Shown here: positions 1,803-38,718 of the stretch, piece after piece
Layout of the letters: the number at the start of each line of letters is the position of its first letter
Numbering within the stretch: position 1 is the stretch's first letter
Assembly (NCBI RefSeq): GCF_965641715.1
Contig: NZ_OZ282453.1
DNA from: Escherichia coli
GTDB taxonomy: Bacteria; Pseudomonadota; Gammaproteobacteria; Enterobacterales; Enterobacteriaceae
DNA length: 64,000 nucleotides
Direction: 5' to 3' (one strand)
Program-made: the position numbers and the translations under genes
Notes under the pieces: generated by a model
Told to the model about the DNA's origin: nothing
What the model saw: the letters and a program-made list of their open reading frames with translations, nothing else
The model's database searches: none

Positions 1803-3158
1803 ATGTTTTCAGAAGTCATGCGTTATATTCTCGATCTCGGCCCTACGGTGATGTTGCCGATTGTCATCATTATTTTTTCTAAAATTTTAGGCATGAAGGC
1901 AGGCGATTGCTTTAAAGCGGGTCTGCATATCGGGATTGGCTTTGTTGGCATTGGCCTTGTGATTGGCTTAATGCTGGATTCCATTGGTCCGGCGGCGAAA
2001 GCGATGGCGGAAAATTTCGACCTGAATCTGCATGTGGTCGATGTCGGCTGGCCGGGCTCTTCACCAATGACCTGGGCGTCGCAAATTGCGCTGGTGGCGA
2101 TTCCGATTGCGATTCTGGTTAACGTGGCGATGTTACTGACCCGTATGACGCGGGTGGTAAATGTTGATATCTGGAATATCTGGCATATGACCTTCACCGG
2201 CGCGTTGCTGCATCTGGCAACCGGTTCATGGATGATAGGGATGGCAGGTGTGGTAATTCACGCGGCGTTTGTTTATAAGCTCGGCGACTGGTTTGCCCGC
2301 GATACCCGAAATTTCTTTGAGCTGGAAGGCATTGCAATCCCGCACGGTACGTCGGCGTATATGGGGCCAATTGCGGTGCTGGTCGATGCTATCATCGAGA
2401 AAATCCCAGGCGTTAACCGAATTAAATTTAGCGCCGACGATATTCAGCGCAAATTTGGTCCGTTTGGCGAGCCTGTCACCGTGGGTTTTGTGATGGGGCT
2501 GATTATCGGCATCCTCGCGGATTACGATGTCAAAGGTGTATTGCAGCTGGCGGTAAAAACGGCGGCAGTTATGCTGCTGATGCCACGGGTGATTAAACCC
2601 ATCATGGATGGTTTAACGCCCATCGCTAAGCAGGCCCGTAGTCGTTTACAGGCGAAGTTCGGCGGTCAGGAGTTCCTGATTGGCCTGGATCCCGCATTAC
2701 TGCTGGGGCATACGGCGGTGGTATCGGCAAGCCTGATTTTTATTCCACTCACCATTTTAATTGCTGTTTGTGTGCCGGGTAATCAGGTGCTGCCGTTTGG
2801 CGATCTTGCCACTATCGGCTTCTTTGTGGCGATGGCGGTCGCGGTGCATCGTGGAAATCTGTTCCGCACCTTAATCTCGGGTGTCATCATTATGAGCATC
2901 ACCCTGTGGATCGCGACGCAAACTATTGGTTTGCACACCCAACTGGCGGCTAATGCTGGGGCGTTAAAAGCCGGAGGTATGGTGGCTTCAATGGATCAGG
3001 GCGGTTCTCCCATTACCTGGTTACTGATTCAGGTTTTCTCCCCGCAAAATATTCCCGGTTTCATTATTATCGGCGCAATTTATCTTACCGGTATTTTCAT
3101 GACCTGGCGTAGAGCGCGTGGTTTTATTAAACAAGAGAAAGCCGTTCTCGCAGAATAA
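1803..3158 (+). CDS. gatC: Galactitol PTS enzyme IIC permease
   Basis: 451-aa highly hydrophobic ORF, operon position. Confidence 0.9.
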   Translation: MFSEVMRYILDLGPTVMLPIVIIIFSKILGMKAGDCFKAGLHIGIGFVGIGLVIGLMLDSIGPAAKAMAENFDLNLHVVDVGWPGSSPMTWASQIALVAIPIAILVNVAMLLTRMTRVVNVDIWNIWHMTFTGALLHLATGSWMIGMAGVVIHAAFVYKLGDWFARDTRNFFELEGIAIPHGTSAYMGPIAVLVDAIIEKIPGVNRIKFSADDIQRKFGPFGEPVTVGFVMGLIIGILADYDVKGVLQLAVKTAAVMLLMPRVIKPIMDGLTPIAKQARSRLQAKFGGQEFLIGLDPALLLGHTAVVSASLIFIPLTILIAVCVPGNQVLPFGDLATIGFFVAMAVAVHRGNLFRTLISGVIIMSITLWIATQTIGLHTQLAANAGALKAGGMVASMDQGGSPITWLLIQVFSPQNIPGFIIIGAIYLTGIFMTWRRARGFIKQEKAVLAE

Positions 3159-3205
3159 TTTTTACCTGAGGGGGAGGTTATCCCCCTTAACAATCAGGAG
3201 TTTTT

Positions 3206-4246
3206 ATGAAATCAGTGGTGAATGATACTGATGGTATCGTGCGCGTTGCAGAAAGCGTCATTCCTGAAATTAAACATCAGGATGAGGTGCGGGTAAAAAT
3301 TGCCAGCTCGGGCTTATGTGGTTCCGATTTACCCAGGATATTTAAAAATGGTGCACATTATTATCCAATAACGTTAGGCCATGAATTTAGCGGCTATATT
3401 GATGCGGTAGGATCCGGTGTTGATGATTTACACCCTGGCGATGCGGTTGCCTGTGTGCCGTTATTACCCTGTTTTACTTGTCCAGAGTGTCTGAAAGGGT
3501 TTTATTCCCAGTGCGCAAAATATGATTTTATTGGCTCACGGCGTGATGGTGGATTTGCCGAATATATTGTCGTTAAGCGAAACAATGTCTTTGCACTACC
3601 TGCGGATATGCCTATTGAGGATGGGGCTTTTATTGAACCGATTACCGTTGGCCTGCATGCTTTTCATTTAGCGCAAGGTTGTGAGAATAAAAACGTTATT
3701 ATTATTGGTGCCGGAACCATTGGCCTGCTGGCCATTCAGTGCGCTGTCGCGCTGGGAGCAAAGAGTGTGACGGCGATCGACATTAGCTCAGAAAAACTGG
3801 CACTGGCAAAATCTTTCGGTGCGATGCAAACATTTAACAGTAGCGAAATGAGCGCGCCGCAAATGCAGGGCGTTTTACGCGAGCTGCGCTTTAATCAGCT
3901 TATCCTCGAGACGGCTGGCGTACCGCAAACTGTGGAACTGGCGGTAGAGATTGCCGGTCCTCATGCCCAACTGGCGCTGGTGGGGACGTTGCATCAGGAT
4001 CTGCATTTAACATCGGCAACGTTTGGCAAAATATTGCGTAAAGAGCTGACGGTTATCGGCAGTTGGATGAACTACTCCAGCCCTTGGCCTGGGCAGGAGT
4101 GGGAAACGGCGAGCCGGTTGCTGACAGAACGTAAGTTAAGCCTGGAGCCATTAATCGCTCACCGTGGAAGCTTTGAATGCTTCGCCCAGGCGGTGCGTGA
4201 CATCGCTCGTAATGCTATGCCGGGCAAAGTGTTGCTCATTCCCTGA
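3206..4246 (+). CDS. gatD: Galactitol-1-phosphate 5-dehydrogenase (Zn-dependent MDR family)
   Basis: 346-aa ORF with zinc-ADH Cys/His pattern and GxGxxG Rossmann motif. Confidence 0.9.
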   Translation: MKSVVNDTDGIVRVAESVIPEIKHQDEVRVKIASSGLCGSDLPRIFKNGAHYYPITLGHEFSGYIDAVGSGVDDLHPGDAVACVPLLPCFTCPECLKGFYSQCAKYDFIGSRRDGGFAEYIVVKRNNVFALPADMPIEDGAFIEPITVGLHAFHLAQGCENKNVIIIGAGTIGLLAIQCAVALGAKSVTAIDISSEKLALAKSFGAMQTFNSSEMSAPQMQGVLRELRFNQLILETAGVPQTVELAVEIAGPHAQLALVGTLHQDLHLTSATFGKILRKELTVIGSWMNYSSPWPGQEWETASRLLTERKLSLEPLIAHRGSFECFAQAVRDIARNAMPGKVLLIP

Positions 4247-13443: not shown

Positions 13444-13462
13444 GGCGAGGCGGGGTAAGCGT
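13444..13462. other. cos-like 19-mer ggcgaggcggggtaagcgt (first 12 nt match the P2 cohesive-end sequence as recalled)
   Basis: Partial match to remembered P2 cos GGCGAGGCGGGGAAAGCAC; location between A region and Q is as expected. Confidence 0.3.
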
Positions 13463-13533
13463 TGCGCGCGCCTGTCAAAGATATTAAGATTGTCTCAAAA
13501 TCGATTGATTTTATTGAACTAATGGAGCTAGGA

Positions 13534-15090
13534 ATGATTAAGGGTATAGGTCTTCAAAACTTCAGGAGCTTTGTCAACAAAACGTTTATTGATTTAAAAC
13601 CAATTACAGTATTTGTTGGTAAGAACAGCAGTGGTAAAAGTTCCCTATTGCGCACATTTCCTTTACTTCGTCAATCTGTAGAAGAAAATACTACTGGCCC
13701 AATACTATGGTATGGGAGATATGTGGATTTTGGCGATTTTACAGATGTACTTTCCCGAAACTCTGAAAAAAAAGAAATTACGTTTAGTTTTTCACTCTCA
13801 ATTCCGCCAGAGGTTTCACAAAGATATACATATTATCGTTCTACTGATTTAGCAAAGCAACCAACAGATATTGAAGCAGAGTTAACTGTTTACTCTAAAG
13901 ATAAAAAAACAAAAACGAAAACGATTAAGCTTATATTGGCTGATTTAACAATATTTATTTCAATGGATGAGAGTAGTAATGTTAAATTACTCATTGAATC
14001 AGATGATAAAACAATAGAGCGTGATGGGATAATAGCTAAAAATCTTGGGCAGTTCATACCAAATCTAATTTTGAAGGGTAAGGAAGACAGTCCTCCTCCA
14101 AGCACATCATTCTATTTGAGACATTCTAGGCATGACAGGGCGTTAGAATTGTCATTTATTGATTCAGCGGCGAAATATATAAAGAAATATTTCCATACTA
14201 AATCTGATATAAATCAAGTGACAGAGGCATTCAAAAGAATTGGCTTTATACCCAAAGCGTACGCTAGTAAATTAGTTGCTTTTCTATTTAAGGAACAAAA
14301 AGTTTTTAGTAGAAACTTTGAATTTCAACATGATGAAATAATGAATGAGTTATATCCATTTATAATTGGATGGAATATTAATAATCTTATAGATATAATA
14401 AATACATCCTTGTCAGATTCATTCAGAAATGTAAAGTACATAGCTCCACTGCGTGCTACATCAGAAAGATTTTATCGTTTTCAAGATTTACAGGTTAATG
14501 AGATAGATCATACTGGTTCCAATCTTGCAATGCTTTTGAATTCATTAAGACCGGCTGATAAATCAAAATTTGAAGATTGGACAAAGTTAAATTTTGATTT
14601 CATTATCAAGGTTGAACAAAGTGGCTCTCACTTTGCAATTTTAATAAACACCGGTGAAAATAGTGAGAACTATAATGTTAGTGATATGGGGTTTGGTTAT
14701 TCTCAGGTTTTGCCGATAGTTACAGCCATTTGGCTTGAGACAGAACGTCGTGCTACCACGGTTAGAAAACCTATAACATTTATCATTGAGCAGCCAGAAT
14801 TGCATTTACATCCGTCATATCAGCATAATTTAGCAAGTATTTTTGCAAAAGTAGTAACTAAAGCAAAAGAAAATAATGTAGATTTGAAGATAATTTTTGA
14901 GACACATAGCCAGACCATGATTGAAGCACTTGGTGAATATATTGAGGAAAATGAAAGTCTTTCACAGGATGATATTTCAATACTGGTATTTGAAAAAGAT
15001 GATAAGCAGCAGACTATAGTTAAGAAATCTTATTTTGACGAGAATGGTTTCCTAAAAAATTGGCCGGTTGGCTTTTTCTCGGGTAAGTAG
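13534..15090 (+). CDS. OLD/AAA_21-like ABC ATPase (518 aa), first gene of cargo operon
   Basis: Start MIKGIGLQNFRSF with GGAG RBS; Walker A GKNSSGKSS (13618..13644); Walker B-like FIIEQPELHLHP (14779..14814); FETHS H-loop; AT-rich. Confidence 0.8.
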   Translation: MIKGIGLQNFRSFVNKTFIDLKPITVFVGKNSSGKSSLLRTFPLLRQSVEENTTGPILWYGRYVDFGDFTDVLSRNSEKKEITFSFSLSIPPEVSQRYTYYRSTDLAKQPTDIEAELTVYSKDKKTKTKTIKLILADLTIFISMDESSNVKLLIESDDKTIERDGIIAKNLGQFIPNLILKGKEDSPPPSTSFYLRHSRHDRALELSFIDSAAKYIKKYFHTKSDINQVTEAFKRIGFIPKAYASKLVAFLFKEQKVFSRNFEFQHDEIMNELYPFIIGWNINNLIDIINTSLSDSFRNVKYIAPLRATSERFYRFQDLQVNEIDHTGSNLAMLLNSLRPADKSKFEDWTKLNFDFIIKVEQSGSHFAILINTGENSENYNVSDMGFGYSQVLPIVTAIWLETERRATTVRKPITFIIEQPELHLHPSYQHNLASIFAKVVTKAKENNVDLKIIFETHSQTMIEALGEYIEENESLSQDDISILVFEKDDKQQTIVKKSYFDENGFLKNWPVGFFSGK

Positions 15091-15092
15091 TT

Positions 15093-16205
15093 ATGTTGAT
15101 TAATATCGAAAATGCGACACCTGAGAAGGTGCTAAATAACTCATTTGCCATAGCGGTTGAAAATATACTTCGGGCATTCGCTGAACAAAAACACTTGGTT
15201 ATAGGGGCAAGGGTTTTTTTTAAAACTATTATCAATGATCAAAGCGGGCTTTATAGCCTTTCATCAAAAAGTTACGCGCAAGAGGCTTTGTCGGGTCTAA
15301 CAGAGTACTATGCTATCTTGGATCAGGTCTCATTTTATGTATCTGTCGACTTTAATATTAGTGATAAATCATTTAAATGGGTTCAGATCGGTGAATCTTT
15401 TAAATTTGTTTGTGGTCCATTGTATTTTAATGACTCGGCACAATTGCAAAAAACGAAAATAGTATGTGAAAATCCTTTGGATTCTGATTTTTTTAAGGTT
15501 ATAGCGGCTCATTATGCCGAAGGTATTAACTTATCTCGCTGCGAAATGGGTTTTATCGCTCTAAATGGCGGTGGGGGCAGTACTAAGGATATATTCGAGC
15601 GTGCAATTCAAAATAATGAGATAGTTTTTTGTATTGTGGATAATGACAAAAAACATCCTGGAGCCCCATTCGGAGGTACTTGCTCACATTTTTTGGGCTC
15701 ACAAATTACTCGCTCAGGTTTCGTGGAGATTTTAGATGTACATGAAATAGAATCTCTAGTTCCTTTATCGACAATTGAAGATGTATTAAGAAGTCAAAGT
15801 CAATTGCAACAAAAAGAAAAATCTCTCATTTTCTTTAAGCATCTTTGCTCCGTAGATGAATCAGTAAAATTTTATATTGACCATAAAAAAGGTTTTGATT
15901 TTAAAACAGCCCTTGAACTCGATCGAAAACATGGTGCATATTGGCGTCCGATATTAAAGAAGCTTGATATAAAATATGATTGTGAGTATATCGAATCAAA
16001 ACGTTGTAGCTGCAACGCTGCTTGTGTAAGTTATGATGGTTTTGGAGAGAATTTGCTCAGCAATACATTGAAATATATACAAAAGGGAAGTTTAAAAAAA
16101 TATAATCCTCACCTAACACCAGTGCTTTCTGATAAATGGTATAAGTTAGGTAAGAATTTCTTTAGTTGGAGTTGTGGTCCATATAAAAAAGCAAGGGTTG
16201 GTTAA
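15093..16205 (+). CDS. Partner protein (370 aa) with Toprim-like signature, possible nuclease effector
   Basis: ATG 2 nt after ATPase stop; YAEG (15519..15524), GGGG, IVDNDKKHP (DND at 15639..15647); C-terminal Cys cluster; AT-rich. Confidence 0.65.
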   Translation: MLINIENATPEKVLNNSFAIAVENILRAFAEQKHLVIGARVFFKTIINDQSGLYSLSSKSYAQEALSGLTEYYAILDQVSFYVSVDFNISDKSFKWVQIGESFKFVCGPLYFNDSAQLQKTKIVCENPLDSDFFKVIAAHYAEGINLSRCEMGFIALNGGGGSTKDIFERAIQNNEIVFCIVDNDKKHPGAPFGGTCSHFLGSQITRSGFVEILDVHEIESLVPLSTIEDVLRSQSQLQQKEKSLIFFKHLCSVDESVKFYIDHKKGFDFKTALELDRKHGAYWRPILKKLDIKYDCEYIESKRCSCNAACVSYDGFGENLLSNTLKYIQKGSLKKYNPHLTPVLSDKWYKLGKNFFSWSCGPYKKARVG

Positions 16206-22086: not shown

Positions 22087-22593
22087 ATGACGACAGTGAT
22101 TATTGAGCCAAAAAAAGAGCCGCAGGACGTGCCGGGCGTGGTGATACCGCCACCGGGCGTGAGTGAGCCGGCAATAAAAAACACCTTCTTTTTTCCTGAT
22201 GTTGATCCGAAGCGCGTGCGTGAGCTGATGCGTCTGGAGCAGACCGTTTCCCCGCTGCGCCTGAATGATGCGATTAAAGCCGGTATGGCCGAAACCAATG
22301 CGGAGCTTGCCCTGTGGCGGGTTGACCAGATGGCCGCAGGTCATCAGACGCTGGCAGATGTGCCTGCCGATGATATCGACGGTGAAAGCGTGCGCTGTTT
22401 CCACTATTTCCGCGCCGTCTGCGCCATGACCAGCGCCACCCTGTTTGAACGCTATCGCGGCATCGATGCGACGGCGAAAGGTGACCGCAAGGCGGAAAGC
22501 ACCGAGGCGGTTATCGATGAACTGTGGCGGGATATGCGCTGGTCTGTGGCGCGTATTCAGGATAAGCCGCGCTGCATTGTCGGCCAAATCTGA
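22087..22593 (+). CDS. Capsid completion protein (P2 gpL-like)
   Basis: 168 aa, position. Confidence 0.8.
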   Translation: MTTVIIEPKKEPQDVPGVVIPPPGVSEPAIKNTFFFPDVDPKRVRELMRLEQTVSPLRLNDAIKAGMAETNAELALWRVDQMAAGHQTLADVPADDIDGESVRCFHYFRAVCAMTSATLFERYRGIDATAKGDRKAESTEAVIDELWRDMRWSVARIQDKPRCIVGQI

Positions 22594-22796
22594 TGAAGGT
22601 TTACGCGATGCAGGGTGACACCCTTGATGCGATTTGCGCCCGGTATTACGGGCGCACTGAGGGCGTCGTTGAAACGGTGCTGCAGGCGAATCCGGGGCTG
22701 TCAGAGTTGGGCGTTATTCTACCGCACGGCACGGCCATTGAACTGCCCGAAACCGACAGCGCCCCGAAAACCGAAACGGTGATTCTATGGGACTGA
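22593..22796 (+). CDS. Tail protein X-like (67 aa)
   Basis: Size and position as P2 X. Confidence 0.65.
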   Translation: MKVYAMQGDTLDAICARYYGRTEGVVETVLQANPGLSELGVILPHGTAIELPETDSAPKTETVILWD

Positions 22797-23008
22797 GTGT
22801 GGAAAAAATCACGACCTTTATCGCTTACTGGCTGGCCGTGGGGCTGGCGTATTTCGGGGCGATGTCGCCCGAAAAGCTGGCGCTGTATGTGGGGAGTGCC
22901 TGCGCCATTTTTACCGCGCTGACGAATTACTGGTTTAAGCGCAAAACCTTTCGCTATCTGAAATCGCTCGGACTCGATAAGGGGGCGATACGTGAGCTCA
23001 ATCATTAA
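22787..23008 (+). CDS. Putative holin/pinholin (73 aa, two hydrophobic segments)
   Basis: Small membrane protein immediately upstream of SAR endolysin. Confidence 0.5.
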   Translation: MGLSVEKITTFIAYWLAVGLAYFGAMSPEKLALYVGSACAIFTALTNYWFKRKTFRYLKSLGLDKGAIRELNH

Positions 23009-23501
23009 ACGCTGCAGTGTGGCCGCCGTGCTGGCGCTGGCGGCACTGGTGCCTGACTTTCGTCTGCTTAACACCTCGCCCGAGGGGCTGGCGCTGATTG
23101 CTGACCTTGAAGGATGTCGCCTGACGCCTTACCAGTGCAGCGCGGGCGTGTGGACGTCGGGCATTGGCCACACTGCCGGGGTTGTCCCGAAAGGGGATAT
23201 TACCGAACAGCGCGCGGCGGAAAACCTCGTCGCGGATGTGCTCAACACTGAGCAACGGCTCGCGGTCTGTGTGCCGGTGGATATGCCACCGCGCGTCTAT
23301 GACACGCTGGTCAGTTTTGCCTTTAACGTGGGAACGGGGGCCGCCTGCCGGTCGACGCTGGTCTCGTATATCAAACGTCATCAGTGGTGGCAGGCGTGCG
23401 ACCAGCTCACCCGCTGGGTGTATGTGAAGGGTGTCCGAAACCGGGGGCTGGAAAACCGCCGCGATCGGGAGTGGGCTTACTGCGTTAAGGGGATGCAATG
23501 A
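22992..23501 (+). CDS. SAR endolysin (phage lysozyme family) with N-terminal signal-anchor-release segment
   Basis: N-terminal hydrophobic CSVAAVLALAALV; lysozyme-like core (GLALIADLEGCRLTPY...GIGHT). Confidence 0.8.
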   Translation: MSSIIKRCSVAAVLALAALVPDFRLLNTSPEGLALIADLEGCRLTPYQCSAGVWTSGIGHTAGVVPKGDITEQRAAENLVADVLNTEQRLAVCVPVDMPPRVYDTLVSFAFNVGTGAACRSTLVSYIKRHQWWQACDQLTRWVYVKGVRNRGLENRRDREWAYCVKGMQ

Positions 23502-23923
23502 AAGTGCTGATTATTCTGCTGGCCGGGTTGCTCGCCATGGTGCTGTGGCTGCGCCACGATAACGCGAATTTATCCCGCTCCTTTGAAAAGGCGAACCGGG
23601 TCGCCAATGAGCAAAAGACGACGATTGGCATGCTGAAAAATCAGTTTGCCGTATCGCAGCGCATCGCCAGGACGAATGAAGCCGTGCAGGTCAGGCTCAG
23701 TGACGAGCTGAACGCCGCCGGAGAGCTGGCGGCAAGACGTGAACAAACCATAACGAGGCTGCTGAATGAAAACGAGGATTTGCGCCGCTGGTATAGCGCT
23801 GATTTGCCTGATGCTGTGCGCCGGTTGCACATCCGCACCGGCTGCGCCTCCGCTGCCTATTGTTTACAACGCCTGCCCGAAGGTGAGCTTCTGCCCGATG
23901 CCGGGCAGCGATCCCACGACTAA
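23498..23923 (+). CDS. i-spanin (LysB/Rz-like)
   Basis: N-terminal TM segment, coiled-coil rich, position after endolysin. Confidence 0.6.
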   Translation: MKVLIILLAGLLAMVLWLRHDNANLSRSFEKANRVANEQKTTIGMLKNQFAVSQRIARTNEAVQVRLSDELNAAGELAARREQTITRLLNENEDLRRWYSADLPDAVRRLHIRTGCASAAYCLQRLPEGELLPDAGQRSHD

Positions 23924-24056
23924 CGGCGACCTGAGTGCTGATATTCGCAGGCTTGAGCACGCGCTCACCGCCTGCGCGCTAAAGGTCGAAACCATCAAAG
24001 ACTGTCAGGATAAAATCGATGCAGAAAATGAAAAGCCTGCGCCAGGCGCTTACTGA
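23766..24056 (+). CDS. o-spanin (LysC/Rz1-like lipoprotein) embedded out of frame in i-spanin gene
   Basis: Lipobox LCAGC, proline-rich, overlaps end of i-spanin. Confidence 0.55.
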   Translation: MKTRICAAGIALICLMLCAGCTSAPAAPPLPIVYNACPKVSFCPMPGSDPTTNGDLSADIRRLEHALTACALKVETIKDCQDKIDAENEKPAPGAY

Positions 24057-24486
24057 CGCCGTGCCGCAGTTAAAAAACAATCCCGAAATGATGCGCATCT
24101 TTGCCGATGAGGGAAATATCTATGCGCGTCTCGCGGCCTCGCTGTCTCATGAAAAGAATTACACCCTGAATGTGATCGTCTGCGATTTTGTGGGCGACCC
24201 TGACCTGATTTTCGTGCCGGTGGCGGCATGGCTGCGTGAGAACCAGCCGGATATCTGCACGCTGGATGAGGGGCGCAAAAAGGGCTATCGGTTCCAGATG
24301 GATTTAAACGACGGTGATAATGTGGATATCAGTATCAGCCTGCAGCTCACCGAGCGCACTCTCGTCAGGGATGAAAATGGTGCGCTGCACGTCAGCTATG
24401 CGCCTGAACCACCTTTACCCGAGCCGGTGACGCGGCCAACTGAGCTGTATATCAATGGCGAACTGGTGAGCAAATGGGATGAATGA
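24019..24486 (+). CDS. Tail completion protein R-like
   Basis: 155 aa as P2 R, position. Confidence 0.7.
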   Translation: MQKMKSLRQALTDAVPQLKNNPEMMRIFADEGNIYARLAASLSHEKNYTLNVIVCDFVGDPDLIFVPVAAWLRENQPDICTLDEGRKKGYRFQMDLNDGDNVDISISLQLTERTLVRDENGALHVSYAPEPPLPEPVTRPTELYINGELVSKWDE

Positions 24487-25038: not shown

Positions 25039-25791
25039 CTAACGTTCGAATATTATTATCACCCCAAGAGTGAGATGTATATGATCTTCTATTTGTTCAT
25101 ATTCTTCTTGGGTGTAAGAAAGTTTAGCTAATTCTTCTGTTGCTGAAAAGACATCAATGGATACTTGGACGCCTGATGGGATTTCATTTTTTATTTCATT
25201 AATGTATTTGTTGTATTTTCTTGTGATTAGTATTATTGCGCGATCTCTGTCGACGGTGGTTGAGCAATATCGATTGGATTTGCTGTTGTTATTGTGGAAT
25301 GATTCGAATGCGCAATTGAGGGCAAGTCTTAGATTTGATGATCCTGTATTTCCAGTGTGATTGAAGTATTCTATGTTTCTTCTTAAGTCTTCAAATAGTT
25401 TTGCCTTATTTGGATTGTCCCCTTTAACTTCAATAGCACATTTTGGATAATCAAACCCATTATTATTGCCTAGTATGGCAATGTCTATCCTACCTTTTCT
25501 GGTTGTGTTTGCTTTGATTCTTAGTATTTGCCTTGAAAATATTTTCCCCGGCGTTAGTCTTTTTGAAAATGGCACCGTTGAAGTTATAAAATCCCCTGTA
25601 TCATATTCAAAAATTATTTTCTCATCATCTATGTGAAAATTTTTACTATCAAGTAGGGCTTTGCCTATTGATACAGTAGCGACGTATTCGGTATTGATTT
25701 TACCACCAGAACTGAAATTCATTAAACGTGTGATTTTAGCTGCATTGGACATGCCATCCTTTACTGCTGTGATTATTTCGTAATTGTCCAT
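25039..25791 (-). CDS. AT-rich cargo protein (250 aa) with PD-(D/E)xK-like nuclease motif
   Basis: Opposite strand to flanking tail genes; motif GRIDIAIL..(17 aa)..AIEVKGDN (D103, E121, K123; 25423..25485); strongly AT-rich. Confidence 0.6.
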   Translation of the reverse strand: MDNYEIITAVKDGMSNAAKITRLMNFSSGGKINTEYVATVSIGKALLDSKNFHIDDEKIIFEYDTGDFITSTVPFSKRLTPGKIFSRQILRIKANTTRKGRIDIAILGNNNGFDYPKCAIEVKGDNPNKAKLFEDLRRNIEYFNHTGNTGSSNLRLALNCAFESFHNNNSKSNRYCSTTVDRDRAIILITRKYNKYINEIKNEIPSGVQVSIDVFSATEELAKLSYTQEEYEQIEDHIHLTLGVIIIFER

Positions 25792-37259: not shown

Positions 37260-37339
37260 CGGTGTGTGTTGTTTATGTGTTTGTTTTATAAATAAAAATT
37301 AGTAAAATTAACACATTGAATACGCCGGAGACCCTCATC

Positions 37340-37561
37340 ATGTTTCATTGTCCGAAATGCCATCATGCCGCCCACGCCCGCACGAGTCGCTATTTTACTG
37401 ATACCACAAAAGAGCGGTATCACCAGTGCACAAACATTAACTGCAGCTGCACGTTTGTGACCACTGAAACAGTCGAGCGTTTTATCGTGTCGCCGGGGGA
37501 AGTAGTACCCGCGCCGCCGCATCCGACATCATCAGGTCAGCAACAAATTCACTGGATGTGA
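37340..37561 (+). CDS. ogr: Ogr zinc-finger late transcription activator
   Basis: MFHCPKCHHAAHARTSRYFTDTTKERYHQC matches remembered P2 Ogr; Cys4 zinc finger. Confidence 0.85.
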   Translation: MFHCPKCHHAAHARTSRYFTDTTKERYHQCTNINCSCTFVTTETVERFIVSPGEVVPAPPHPTSSGQQQIHWM

Positions 37562-37866: not shown

Positions 37867-38718
37867 TTGAACAATATCCCCATATCTACTCAATGGACTT
37901 TAGACGCTACGGGTGAAGTTGGACGCTCATCAGTAAATTCTGTTTATATGATTATATGTCCTGCGACAGGCTCGAAAGGATCTGGTTTTTTAATAGATAA
38001 TGGGTTAATAGTAACGAACGAGCATGTTATCACTGGATGCTCTACAAATCAGATTTTCGCAATTTCAGCTTATGGACAGAAGATTCCAATTTCTCAAAAA
38101 TGGATAGATTCTGATCGCGATTTAGCTGTGCTGAGACCTGCCATTACCCAGACTGGTGGGCTAAGTATTGTTAAGGATAATGATCTTAAAGTTGGTGAAT
38201 CAGTAACAACTTGGGGATACCCATTAGGATACAACGGTCCTGCACCGTTACTATCCGTTGGTTATCTAGCAGGATTTAACTCATACCAAACCGCCAAGGG
38301 ACAAAAAAAACATCTAGTGGTAAATGGGGCATTTAACTCAGGAAATTCTGGTGGAGCTCTTTTAAAAGCTTCAGATAATAAAGTAATAGGTATTGTAGTG
38401 AGTAAGCATGCTCCTATCAGTCAATACCATCAATCAGCTATTGAAGCTTTGTCTGAAAATATGAGTGGCGTCACCTATACCGCTACTAATGACGCTGGAG
38501 AAACTAAAAGTTTTGTAGAATCTCAAATTGTAGCAGAATTATTGATTCATATGAGAAGTCTAACTCAAGTTATGATTGGAGAAGCAATTGCAGCAGAGGA
38601 ATTACTTTCGATGCTTAGCGAAATTGACTTGAGTCCACCACAATCTATGTCAAGAAATGCCTTATGTCATTGCGGGAGTGGAAAACGCTTCAAAGAATGT
38701 CATGGAAAGATATCCTAG
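37867..38718 (+). CDS. AT-rich cargo: trypsin-like (S1/chymotrypsin fold) serine protease with C-terminal SEC-C zinc-binding motif
   Basis: TTG start with strong aaaggag RBS 7 nt upstream; catalytic-triad-like TNEHV / DLAVL / GNSGGAL; C-terminal CHCGSGKRFKECHG (38662..38703). Confidence 0.65.
   Translation: MNNIPISTQWTLDATGEVGRSSVNSVYMIICPATGSKGSGFLIDNGLIVTNEHVITGCSTNQIFAISAYGQKIPISQKWIDSDRDLAVLRPAITQTGGLSIVKDNDLKVGESVTTWGYPLGYNGPAPLLSVGYLAGFNSYQTAKGQKKHLVVNGAFNSGNSGGALLKASDNKVIGIVVSKHAPISQYHQSAIEALSENMSGVTYTATNDAGETKSFVESQIVAELLIHMRSLTQVMIGEAIAAEELLSMLSEIDLSPPQSMSRNALCHCGSGKRFKECHGKIS

Follow-up and report, generated by a model that had tools for sequence, protein, structure and literature searches.

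The lysis cassette carried by an apparently intact P2-like (Peduoviridae) prophage of Escherichia coli is most probably a known variant of the P2-like type, in which a class II holin of the HP1/S21 superfamily and an endolysin of the P1 Lyz-type SAR class take the place of the P2 proteins Y, K and LysA, the overlapped, two-component spanin LysB/LysC being retained; the manner in which it would bring about lysis is reconstructed from homologous systems. The arrangement is real but already known, having been annotated in Fels-2, in HP1, in phage Midge and in many E. coli genomes, and the surprise implied by the first-pass annotation of this DNA is not warranted, many P2-like phages carrying the same cassette.

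The prophage occupies approximately 7.1–37.6 kb of the window, by which is meant the whole 64,000-nucleotide stretch of DNA analysed, and also carries an integrase, gpA, the portal, gpD and Ogr. Profile searches identified P2 M, L and X upstream of the cassette, and R and S downstream of it. The relevant features of the locus are the following:

22593..22796, + strand: gene X (P2 tail protein X; PF05489, 1.7e-28), the upstream boundary of the lysis cassette
22751..23589, + strand: segment without DNA homology to P2 (blastn of the window against the P2 locus)
22787..23008, + strand: class II (two-TMD) holin of the HP1/S21 superfamily, 73 aa (PHROG_20 holin, 3e-21)
22992..23501, + strand: GH24 lysozyme-type endolysin, predicted P1 Lyz-type SAR class, 169 aa (PF00959, 6e-36)
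23013..23054, + strand: putative SAR (signal-arrest-release) segment, Cys8–Pro21 (CSVAAVLALAALVP), an uncharged run preceded by K6-R7
23109..23156, + strand: catalytic/regulatory motif E40-G-C42-x6-C49-x5-T55, from residue-by-residue alignment to 1XJT
23498..23923, + strand: lysB, i-spanin, 141 aa (TIGR03495, 128.6 bits)
23766..24056, + strand: lysC, o-spanin lipoprotein, 96 aa (NF038368, 123.7 bits; PF23793, 3.9e-14)
24019..24486, + strand: gene R (tail completion; PF06891, 4.3e-44), the downstream boundary of the cassette

The four cassette ORFs are found at exactly the coordinates, within 22787–24056, at which they had first been placed, and their profile matches indicate that they are not chance ORFs. 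A scan for sigma-70 promoters and terminators found nothing inside the cassette, the matches clustering instead in the AT-rich tin region, a result that fits a late-operon location but is uninformative in itself.

The proposal that holin and endolysin have been swapped relative to P2 Y and K, and that the 73-aa protein does not resemble Y, is borne out at both the protein and the DNA level. BLASTP yielded no alignment at E ≤ 100 either between the holin and P2 Y or between the endolysin and P2 K; PF04550, matched by P2 Y at 2.6e-42, is not matched by the holin, in which hydropathy analysis reveals two TMDs as opposed to the three of Y, and P2 K, unlike the endolysin of the window, has no PF00959 match. 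Furthermore, the DNA homology to P2 stops at 22750 and restarts at 23590, the intervening segment standing in for Y, K, lysA and the first ~30 codons of lysB. The absence of lysA is a point that the first-pass annotation had missed; a tblastn search over the whole window for relocated LysA, Y and K, as well as for the small Fels-2 ORFs, returned nothing above chance.

The spanins, on the other hand, have been kept, as had been recognized from the start. LysB exceeds the cut-off of its equivalog model (92.75 bits), is 61% identical to P2 LysB and has an N-terminal TMD at residues 3–18 by hydropathy; its ATG overlaps the endolysin stop (ATGA), and exactly the same protein is found in public E. 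coli genomes as “LysB”. LysC, for which the equivalog cut-off is 27 bits, begins with the signal peptide MKTRICAAGIALICLMLCAG, followed by Cys21, and shares with P2 LysC the lipobox MLCAGC. It is a side observation that annotations often place the beginning of the o-spanin too far downstream, so that the signal peptide is lost. The lipoprotein gene, earlier described as embedded out of frame, is indeed out of frame, starting 268 nt downstream within lysB in the +1 frame and overlapping the last 158 nt of lysB, but is to be called “overlapped” and not “embedded” because its end lies 133 nt past the lysB stop, where it runs into the beginning of R. The “overlapped” spanin class has P2 as its type example (Kongari 2018, PMC6139136).

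The endolysin gene starts with a GTG preceded by a strong Shine-Dalgarno sequence (AAGGGGG) and overlaps the 3′ end of the holin gene by 17 nt. Its product matches PF00959 with 123.9 bits (cut-off 22.3), and its nearest relatives of solved structure are the two prototype SAR endolysins, matched in the PDB as 1XJT (P1 Lyz) at 7e-22 and 3HDE at 4e-18, R21 coming behind P1 Lyz. E40, C42, C49 and T55 align with E42, C44, C51 and T57 of P1 Lyz, so that a catalytic cysteine (Cys49) is found in place of Asp, a second cysteine (Cys42) at position E+2 and a third (Cys8) in the N-terminal segment; in the alignment of endolysin homologues the conservation of both C42 and C49 is 90% or more, and the KRC-x12-P core of the N-terminus is conserved across the subfamily. 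Since the first set of homologues, all with identities of 78% or more, was too similar to reveal covariation, the association between these cysteines was evaluated in a library of representatives at 50% identity having a hydrophobic N-terminus: an N-terminal cysteine is present in 30 of the 33 that have the C...C motif and in none of the six of the R21 type (Fisher p = 2.6e-5). The AF2 model (pLDDT 93.7) packs residues 11–30, at 96–97, and the putative SAR segment, at 96, onto the enzyme body, and its fold matches the lysozymes of P1 (Lyz), phage 21 (R21), P22 and T4; the best match is 1XJT, with a TM of 0.85, compared with 0.58 for 1XJU, these two entries being, according to their PDB titles, active P1 Lyz and the secreted inactive form, respectively.

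Taken together, sequence and model point to a SAR endolysin of the P1 Lyz type and not of the R21 type, for which membrane tethering and release are predicted. In this respect the first reading of the locus is to be amended: a hydrophobic N-terminal segment is present and is accompanied by the cysteine signature of P1 Lyz, but R21 is not the appropriate model and the uncharged run, enclosed between R7 and D22, comprises only 14 residues, compared with 24 in both R21 and P1 Lyz and 16 in HP1. That this stretch is shorter than that of any prototype is an observation that speaks against the main reading. The endolysin is annotated as “SAR endolysin” in Midge and RCIP0057, while the exact protein of the window is named “lysozyme” in E. 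coli; in some annotations, such as that of Fels-2, the SAR N-terminus is cut off.

The 73-aa protein had been called a “pinholin-type” holin. It has two hydrophobic segments, TMD1 (approximately residues 8–28) and TMD2 (approximately 31–50), and a basic C-terminus with a net charge of +5, as judged from hydropathy and charge. The identical sequence exists in public E. coli genomes under the name “HP1 family phage holin”, and the holin is widely mislabelled “primosomal protein”. The Pfam HP1 holin model (PF16080) gives 22.6 bits for the window protein and 28.0 for the Midge holin, the cut-off being 28.8, and a match to this model is precomputed for close homologues (79–86% identical); the P21 holin model (PF04971) gives 18.3 bits, under the gathering cut-off of 26. 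In pairwise BLASTP, the holin finds the Fels-2 holin at 3e-11 (26% identity) and S21 at 4e-5, whereas HP1 Hol is found at an E of 0.24 only; profile comparison with S21 by hhalign gives a probability of 89.6% and an E of 1.9e-6 over an alignment that spans both TMDs. These comparisons suggest a homology with S21 that is weak though significant. Within TMD2, a stripe of small residues, A32/G36/A40/A44, lies in ungapped register with G40/S44/G48 of S21, the zipper residues as read from the S21 sequence, and G36, A40 and A44 do not vary across 18 homologues. The existence of a glycine zipper motif in S21 is documented (PMC9025707).

The profile homology with S21, the TMD2 register and the precedent of HP1 make the designation of the holin as a pinholin plausible, if unproven. 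A SAR endolysin does not by itself make its partner a pinholin, because canonical holins can fill that role too, LydA doing so for Lyz in P1 (PMC9025707). By this precedent, the protein of the window could be an ordinary large-hole class II holin with which the SAR endolysin merely co-exists, an alternative that is somewhat unlikely but retains appreciable weight. In its favor, the best 17-mer of TMD1 has a KD of 1.54 and a G+A+S+T fraction of 0.41, compared with 0.49 and 0.65, respectively, in the membrane-escaping TMD1 of S21; both Pfam holin scores fall under their cut-offs; and the expert annotators of Midge wrote “holin class II” only. On the other hand, TMD1 of HP1 Hol, with a KD of 1.44 (Fels-2 being higher, at 2.10), is close to that of the window holin and yet HP1 Hol is experimentally pinholin-like (PMC7312051); moreover, the S21 profile homology covers both TMDs, the conserved small-xxx-small stripe is in the register of the S21 glycine zipper and the protein, of 69–73 aa, is very small. 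The pinholin designation thus keeps its support from the S21 profile and from TMD2, but has against it the sub-cut-off Pfam scores and a TMD1 more hydrophobic than that of S21.

The two possible lengths of the holin derive from an alternative start, GTG 22799, which would yield a product of 69 aa instead of 73, and gene callers are divided between the two. It could be imagined that ATG 22787 and GTG 22799 constitute a functional antiholin/holin dual-start pair comparable to S21-71/S21-68, but this is unlikely. Codon 5 of the holin is indeed Met in most homologues, aligning with Met4 of S21 at which S21-68 starts, and the upstream ATG has a reasonable Shine-Dalgarno sequence (GGTGAT, −9.2 kcal/mol); however, codon 5 is Leu or Thr in some homologues and the extension, MGLS, has no positive charge, whereas it is such a charge that gives S21-71 and lambda S107 their antiholin character. 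In addition, HP1 hol has no dual start (PMC7312051). Overall, no antiholin is evident in the cassette, LysA being absent and the N-terminal extension uncharged. The invariance of the initial M-G-L of the holin was also considered as a support for the upstream start and rejected: ATG 22787 sits within the last codons of gene X, L-W-D-stop (CTATGGGACTGA), and since X ends LW(D/E)-stop also in P2 and Fels-2, both of which lack a holin gene overlapping X, the conserved end of the X protein fully explains the invariance.

As to LysA, its role in P2 has been described as that of antiholin to Y, a holin of class I. The lysA gene is absent from the same cassette in the window, in KV7 and in RCIP0057, and present in Midge and in E. 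coli A15; because it occurs in some carriers of this cassette and not in others, it might be speculated, albeit with considerable doubt, that LysA regulates lysis independently of the holin type, for instance through membrane energization or SAR release instead of binding to Y, and that the lysA-less variants time lysis by the charge-less 73/69-aa dual-start pair.

The weakest alternative concerns the endolysin, the N-terminus of which might be a Sec signal peptide that is cleaved off, the enzyme then being secreted with neither tether nor SAR regulation; this is very unlikely, since, although a hydrophobic core of 13–14 residues following a basic n-region (K6, R7) resembles an h-region, a scan by the −3/−1 rule offers the candidate sites ALA|A at 17 and a weak LNT|S at 28, and SignalP so calls the N-terminus of HP1 Lys (PMC7312051), these candidate sites lie inside the h-region or in the first helix of the lysozyme domain, which is conserved, the residue at −1 is Ile or Val in several homologues and no signal-peptidase site is conserved, the co-occurrence of the N-terminal Cys with the C...C motif makes sense only for a segment that is kept, the AF2 model integrates the segment with confidence into the fold, in the manner of full-length active P1 Lyz, and HP1 Lys, having a similarly short stretch, acts as a SAR endolysin. 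The −3/−1 scan alone being undecisive, it is the cysteine co-occurrence and the structural model that were taken as the basis for preferring the SAR endolysin.

By analogy with the homologous systems, a SAR endolysin and a probable pinholin would operate as follows. The cassette genes would be transcribed late, as part of the Ogr-dependent late operon, and the holin would build up harmlessly in the inner membrane, while the endolysin would be exported by Sec and remain tethered through its short N-terminal segment, in a form kept inactive by a disulfide locking the catalytic Cys49 with Cys42. Triggering of the holin, probably with formation of small “pinholes”, would depolarize the membrane and cause the SAR segments to exit the bilayer; the thiol of Cys8 could then isomerize the disulfide to C8–C42, freeing Cys49, and the N-terminal segment would refold onto the enzyme body, whereupon the murein would be degraded. 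Disruption of the outer membrane, presumably by the LysB–LysC complex, would come last.

The cassette illustrates the well-documented mosaicism of lysis modules among P2-like phages, in which X and lysB are conserved and the holin and endolysin genes between them are exchanged together, accompanied by lysA or not, while the spanins remain with the structural backbone. Beyond correct annotation it is of little importance, its practical value being one of annotation hygiene, and the shortness of the SAR segment (14 residues) and the variable presence of lysA are minor points. A full-text search of the literature on SAR endolysins, with or without pinholins, in P2-like phages returned only tangential papers; it is the HP1 study (PMC7312051) that is decisive.

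Among the known systems, P2 itself has its lysis genes in the same late-operon position, between X and R, but Y is a 93-aa class I holin with three TMDs (PF04550), K a soluble endolysin and LysA a protein with four TMDs, and the window contains no counterpart to any of them; the overlapped +1 architecture of P2 LysB/LysC, in agreement with a RefSeq note, is on the contrary identical. The Salmonella phage Fels-2 (Felsduovirus, NC_010463) displays the same order as the window, namely X, a putative two-TMD holin (71 aa), an endolysin “similar to P1 Lyz”, LysB-like, LysC-like and R, with an endolysin 62% identical to that of the window; it differs by two small extra ORFs between endolysin and lysB and by a longer uncharged N-terminal run, G/Q replacing D22/R24.

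The nearest sequenced phages are Escherichia phage Midge (PV287706), Klebsiella phage RCIP0057, Erwinia phage EtG and the Yersinia vB_YpM phages, in which the DNA from L to S is ~76% identical to the window, the holin ~81% and the endolysin 84–86%, the annotations in this group being “holin class II” and “SAR endolysin”. Midge has an ATG at holin codon 5 where the window has GTG and, like E. coli A15, has between endolysin and lysB an extra LysA-like “putative antiholin” gene of ~480 bp that the window lacks.

Phage 21 resembles the window in its holin, since S21 is likewise of class II with homologous TMD1 and TMD2, an SP motif in the loop, LTN-x-[YW]-F-K and the zipper register, and in having, with R21, a GH24 SAR endolysin. 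However, TMD1 of S21 is far less hydrophobic and its dual-start extension is charged, R21 has Asp as the second catalytic residue and no regulatory cysteines, and Rz1 is fully embedded in Rz, unlike lysC in the window; the regulatory cysteines being absent, R21 is activated by steric refolding. P1 Lyz (PDB 1XJT/1XJU) is the best match of the endolysin in both sequence and fold, with an identical E-G-C-x6-C-x5-T motif and a cysteine in the N-terminal segment, but its SAR consists of 24 uncharged residues with Cys13 in mid-helix, as opposed to the 14 of the window endolysin, in which Cys8 lies at the cytoplasmic edge, and its gene is unlinked to that of the main P1 holin, LydA.

Finally, in HP1, a P2-like phage of Haemophilus, a small two-TMD holin is overlapped by a P1 Lyz-type lysozyme and followed by a LysB-like gene, as in the window, and the lysozyme likewise combines a cysteine in a short N-terminal segment with EGC...C...T, even though the two endolysins are only 30% identical and the HP1 cassette is placed after the tail tube genes instead of after X. 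HP1 Hol and Lys behave experimentally as a pinholin and as a SAR endolysin having only 16 uncharged N-terminal residues (PMC7312051), and it is from HP1 that the family of the window holin takes its name in NCBI and Pfam.

Four plus-strand ORFs constitute the lysis cassette of the P2-like (Peduoviridae) prophage, and their matches to family profiles rule out a chance origin for any of them:

22787–23008, plus strand: holin, 73-aa ORF (PHROG holin, 3e-21)
22992–23501, plus strand: endolysin, 169-aa ORF with a GTG start and AAGGGGG 5′ of it (PF00959 lysozyme, 6e-36)
23498–23923, plus strand: lysB, 141-aa ORF whose ATG overlaps the endolysin stop as ATGA (TIGR03495, 128.6 bits; cut-off 92.75)
23766–24056, plus strand: lysC, 96-aa ORF in the +1 frame relative to lysB (NF038368, 123.7 bits; cut-off 27)

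By Pfam and PHROGs the flanks are P2-type, with M (small terminase), L (head completion) and X (tail protein) on the 5′ side and R and S (tail completion) on the 3′ side, within a prophage that has integrase, gpA, portal, gpD and an Ogr-type late activator and is bordered on either side by chromosomal genes. Since the Ogr-type zinc-finger gene (MFHCPKCHHAAHARTSRY..., 37316–37561, plus strand) follows gpD, the P2 control of late transcription appears intact. Directly to its right, at or just past the prophage end, lies a trypsin-like peptidase of 283 aa that carries a SEC-C motif at its C-terminus (37867–38718, plus strand). Between tail genes S and V, in the slot of P2 orf30, an AT-rich 250-aa ORF (25039–25791, minus strand) matches the PADLOC model of Tin (5.6e-93), the P2 protein responsible for exclusion of T-even phages; P2 itself carries tin beside old, and sigma-70-like promoter matches cluster round the ORF. 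The slot where P2 has old and tin, which lies between the portal gene Q and the gene A region, is occupied by a two-gene cargo (13462–16205, plus strand), likely an anti-phage defence system of uncertain type: a 542-aa AAA_15/AAA_21/DUF3696 ATPase (PADLOC NsnB 5e-55, PDC-M55A 7.5e-46, AriA 7e-31) and a 370-aa partner with zero Pfam matches and a weak one to PDC-M55B (2e-4).

Comparison with P2 (NC_070904) bears out the first-pass annotation in its premise that the lysis module has been swapped while LysB/LysC-like spanins were kept. DNA homology to P2 ends at 22750, just within the 3′ end of X, and restarts at 23590, ~30 codons into lysB, an 840-bp segment standing in place of ~1360 bp of P2 (Y, K, lysA and the 5′ end of lysB). 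Neither the 73-aa protein with P2 holin Y nor the 169-aa protein with P2 endolysin K gives a BLASTP alignment even at E ≤ 100; P2 Y is a PF04550 protein with three hydrophobic segments, the window holin having two, and P2 K lacks the PF00959 match of the window endolysin. On the other hand, LysB is 61% identical to its P2 counterpart, LysC and P2 LysC have in common the signal and lipobox MLCAGC, and both spanins score above the cut-offs of NCBI's equivalog models of the P2 proteins. The loss of lysA, which has no counterpart anywhere in the 64-kb window, had been overlooked.

By sequence, the endolysin lies closest among solved structures to the two SAR endolysin prototypes, P1 Lyz (1XJT, 7e-22) and then R21 of phage 21 (3HDE, 4e-18). 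The motif E40-G-C42-x6-C49-x5-T55 aligns (to 1XJT) with E42/C44/C51/T57 of P1 Lyz; as in that enzyme, the catalytic position is a Cys, where R21 uses Asp, and C42 lies at E+2, whose Cys cages the catalytic one in P1 Lyz. An additional Cys (C8) opens the N-terminal hydrophobic segment. The uncharged run is unusually short, 14 residues (C8–P21, bounded by R7 and D22) versus 24 in R21 and P1 Lyz, which raises the real alternative that the N-terminus is a cleavable signal peptide, and a weak L-x-T|S signal-peptidase site is indeed present after the core. However, no site at this place is conserved, L-x-T|S having Ile/Val at −1 in several homologues, whereas the KRC-x12-P core is kept throughout the subfamily. 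Furthermore, among 150 representatives at 50% identity, the segment contains a Cys in 30 of the 33 proteins in which a hydrophobic N-terminus is combined with the C...C motif but in none of six R21-type proteins (Fisher p = 2.6e-5), a co-occurrence that makes sense only if the segment is retained. The AlphaFold2 model (pLDDT 93.7, pTM 0.89) likewise speaks against cleavage: residues 11–30 sit on the enzyme body (pLDDT 96–97), and the best match is full-length active P1 Lyz (1XJT, TM 0.85), followed by full-length R21/DLP12 (0.79), with secreted inactive P1 Lyz far behind (1XJU, 0.58). HP1 Lys, the endolysin of Haemophilus phage HP1, behaves in experiments as a Sec-dependent SAR endolysin despite an uncharged N-terminal run of just 16 residues (PMC7312051). 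We conclude that the window enzyme is a predicted SAR endolysin, as proposed from its hydrophobic N-terminus, its type being that of P1 Lyz (C42/C49/C8) and not of R21. The endolysin of Salmonella phage Fels-2 as annotated (NC_010463 locus, 1825–2301) starts MAVLAIAATLPGF... and is missing the KRC N-terminus; starting at an ATG farther upstream in the same frame yields MNPSIVKRCLVVAVLAIAATLPGF..., restoring the Cys-containing SAR segment.

The holin has two hydrophobic segments (8–28, 31–50) and a basic C-terminus by hydropathy, i.e., class II architecture. It resembles the Fels-2 holin (BLASTP 3e-11) and S21, the holin of phage 21 (BLASTP 4e-5), and an alignment of 18 family members matches S21 across both TMDs (hhalign probability 89.6%, E = 1.9e-6). 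An ungapped register anchored on the common LTN motif places G40/S44/G48, which we take to be the zipper positions of S21 TMD2, on A32/G36/A40; G36, A40 and A44 are invariant across the family. A glycine zipper in S21 TMD2 is cited in PMC9025707. Formal family membership does not follow, since the Pfam scores for the HP1 (22.6 bits) and P21 S (18.3 bits) families fall under the gathering cut-offs. TMD1 hydrophobicity (KD 1.54), close to that of HP1 Hol (1.44), far exceeds that of S21 (0.49) and counts against a strictly S21-like mechanism. A SAR endolysin does not by itself require a pinholin, as P1 exemplifies. The protein is almost certainly a class II member of the S21/HP1 holin superfamily, and the initial "pinholin-type" label is somewhat favored. 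The family is named "primosomal protein" in many NCBI/UniRef records, which looks like a propagated misannotation, and elsewhere, correctly, "HP1 family phage holin".

A functional dual start (ATG 22787 and GTG 22799) is suggested by the alignment of codon 5, a GTG in the window, with Met4 of S21, the start of S21-68, most homologues reading MGLS-M-EK, but appears unlikely. The end of X (22785–22796, L-W-D-stop, CTATGGGACTGA, CTA TGG GAC TGA) contains an out-of-frame ATG found in many P2-like phages, which in the window lineage falls in frame with the holin and yields an apparent upstream start; the L-W-D-stop sequence also occurs in P2 and Fels-2 without an overlapping holin, and the invariant M-G-L is therefore accounted for by conservation of the X C-terminus. 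Moreover, MGLS lacks the positive charge seen in the antiholin extensions of S21-71 and lambda S107. The Shine-Dalgarno sequence is stronger at the upstream ATG (GGTGAT, −9.2 kcal/mol) and weak at the GTG; RefSeq places the start at the former, the annotators of Escherichia phage Midge at the latter.

Of the two spanins, LysB bears a TMD at its N-terminus, and the LysC signal peptide ends MLCAG|C. lysC starts 268 nt inside lysB, out of frame as first described, but ends 133 nt past the lysB stop, and a RefSeq note on a homologous gene reads "substantially overlapping although not fully embedded", so that "embedded" was wrong in detail; the arrangement is of the "overlapped" class, typified by P2 (Kongari et al. 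2018, PMC6139136). O-spanin starts are inconsistently annotated: RefSeq PGAP picks the internal Met16 (window 23811; 1519–1764 in a homologous locus), leaving MLCAG before the lipobox Cys, the Midge (PV287706 locus, 3216–3374) and P2 (NC_070904 locus, 3154–3312) records hold just a 52-aa C-terminal fragment, and the 96-aa form with the full signal peptide is absent from a 15-billion-protein collection.

Gene content, homologies, residue patterns and fold are direct results; the following sequence of events is borrowed from homologous systems. The cassette would be transcribed late from an Ogr-dependent operon, the holin accumulating in the inner membrane while Sec would export the endolysin in tethered form, C49 locked to C42. 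Holin triggering would depolarize the membrane, probably through pinholes; upon release of the SAR segment C8 may attack the C42–C49 disulfide, freeing C49, and the N-terminus would refold onto the enzyme body. Murein degradation would then be followed by disruption of the outer membrane by LysB–LysC.

Exact window sequences of holin, endolysin and LysB occur in 486, 39 and 37 public E. coli contigs, respectively, under the names "HP1 family phage holin", "lysozyme" and "Rz-like lysis system protein LysB", and 55 of 5426 complete E. coli genomes carry the cassette in its entirety (top identity 95.1%). A LysA-like gene (~480 bp, 4-TMD) lies between endolysin and lysB in Midge (2388–2819 of its locus; 41% identity to P2 LysA) and E. 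coli A15 (1209–1637; 38%) and is absent from that interval in the window (23491–23541), E. coli KV7 and Klebsiella RCIP0057; in these otherwise collinear cassettes lysA is an insertion/deletion polymorphism. The first-pass interpretation was right in its core, the corrections concerning the lysA loss, the endolysin type, the pinholin grade and the "overlapped" spanins; mildly notable are the extreme shortness of the SAR segment, the start of the holin, and LysA beside an unrelated holin in some relatives. The cassette is a variant of the P2-like lysis module that was already known and annotated, carried also by RCIP0057, Erwinia EtG, thirteen Yersinia pestis phages and others. Long-annotated Fels-2 has the same architecture (X, 2-TMD putative holin, endolysin "similar to P1 Lyz", LysB-like, LysC-like, R), and Midge, with 76% DNA identity, is annotated with "holin class II" and "SAR endolysin". 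P2-like phages swap holin, endolysin and antiholin but keep LysB/LysC (Lynch et al. 2010, PMC3091744), and one of them, HP1, has a pinholin and a SAR endolysin by experiment (PMC7312051).
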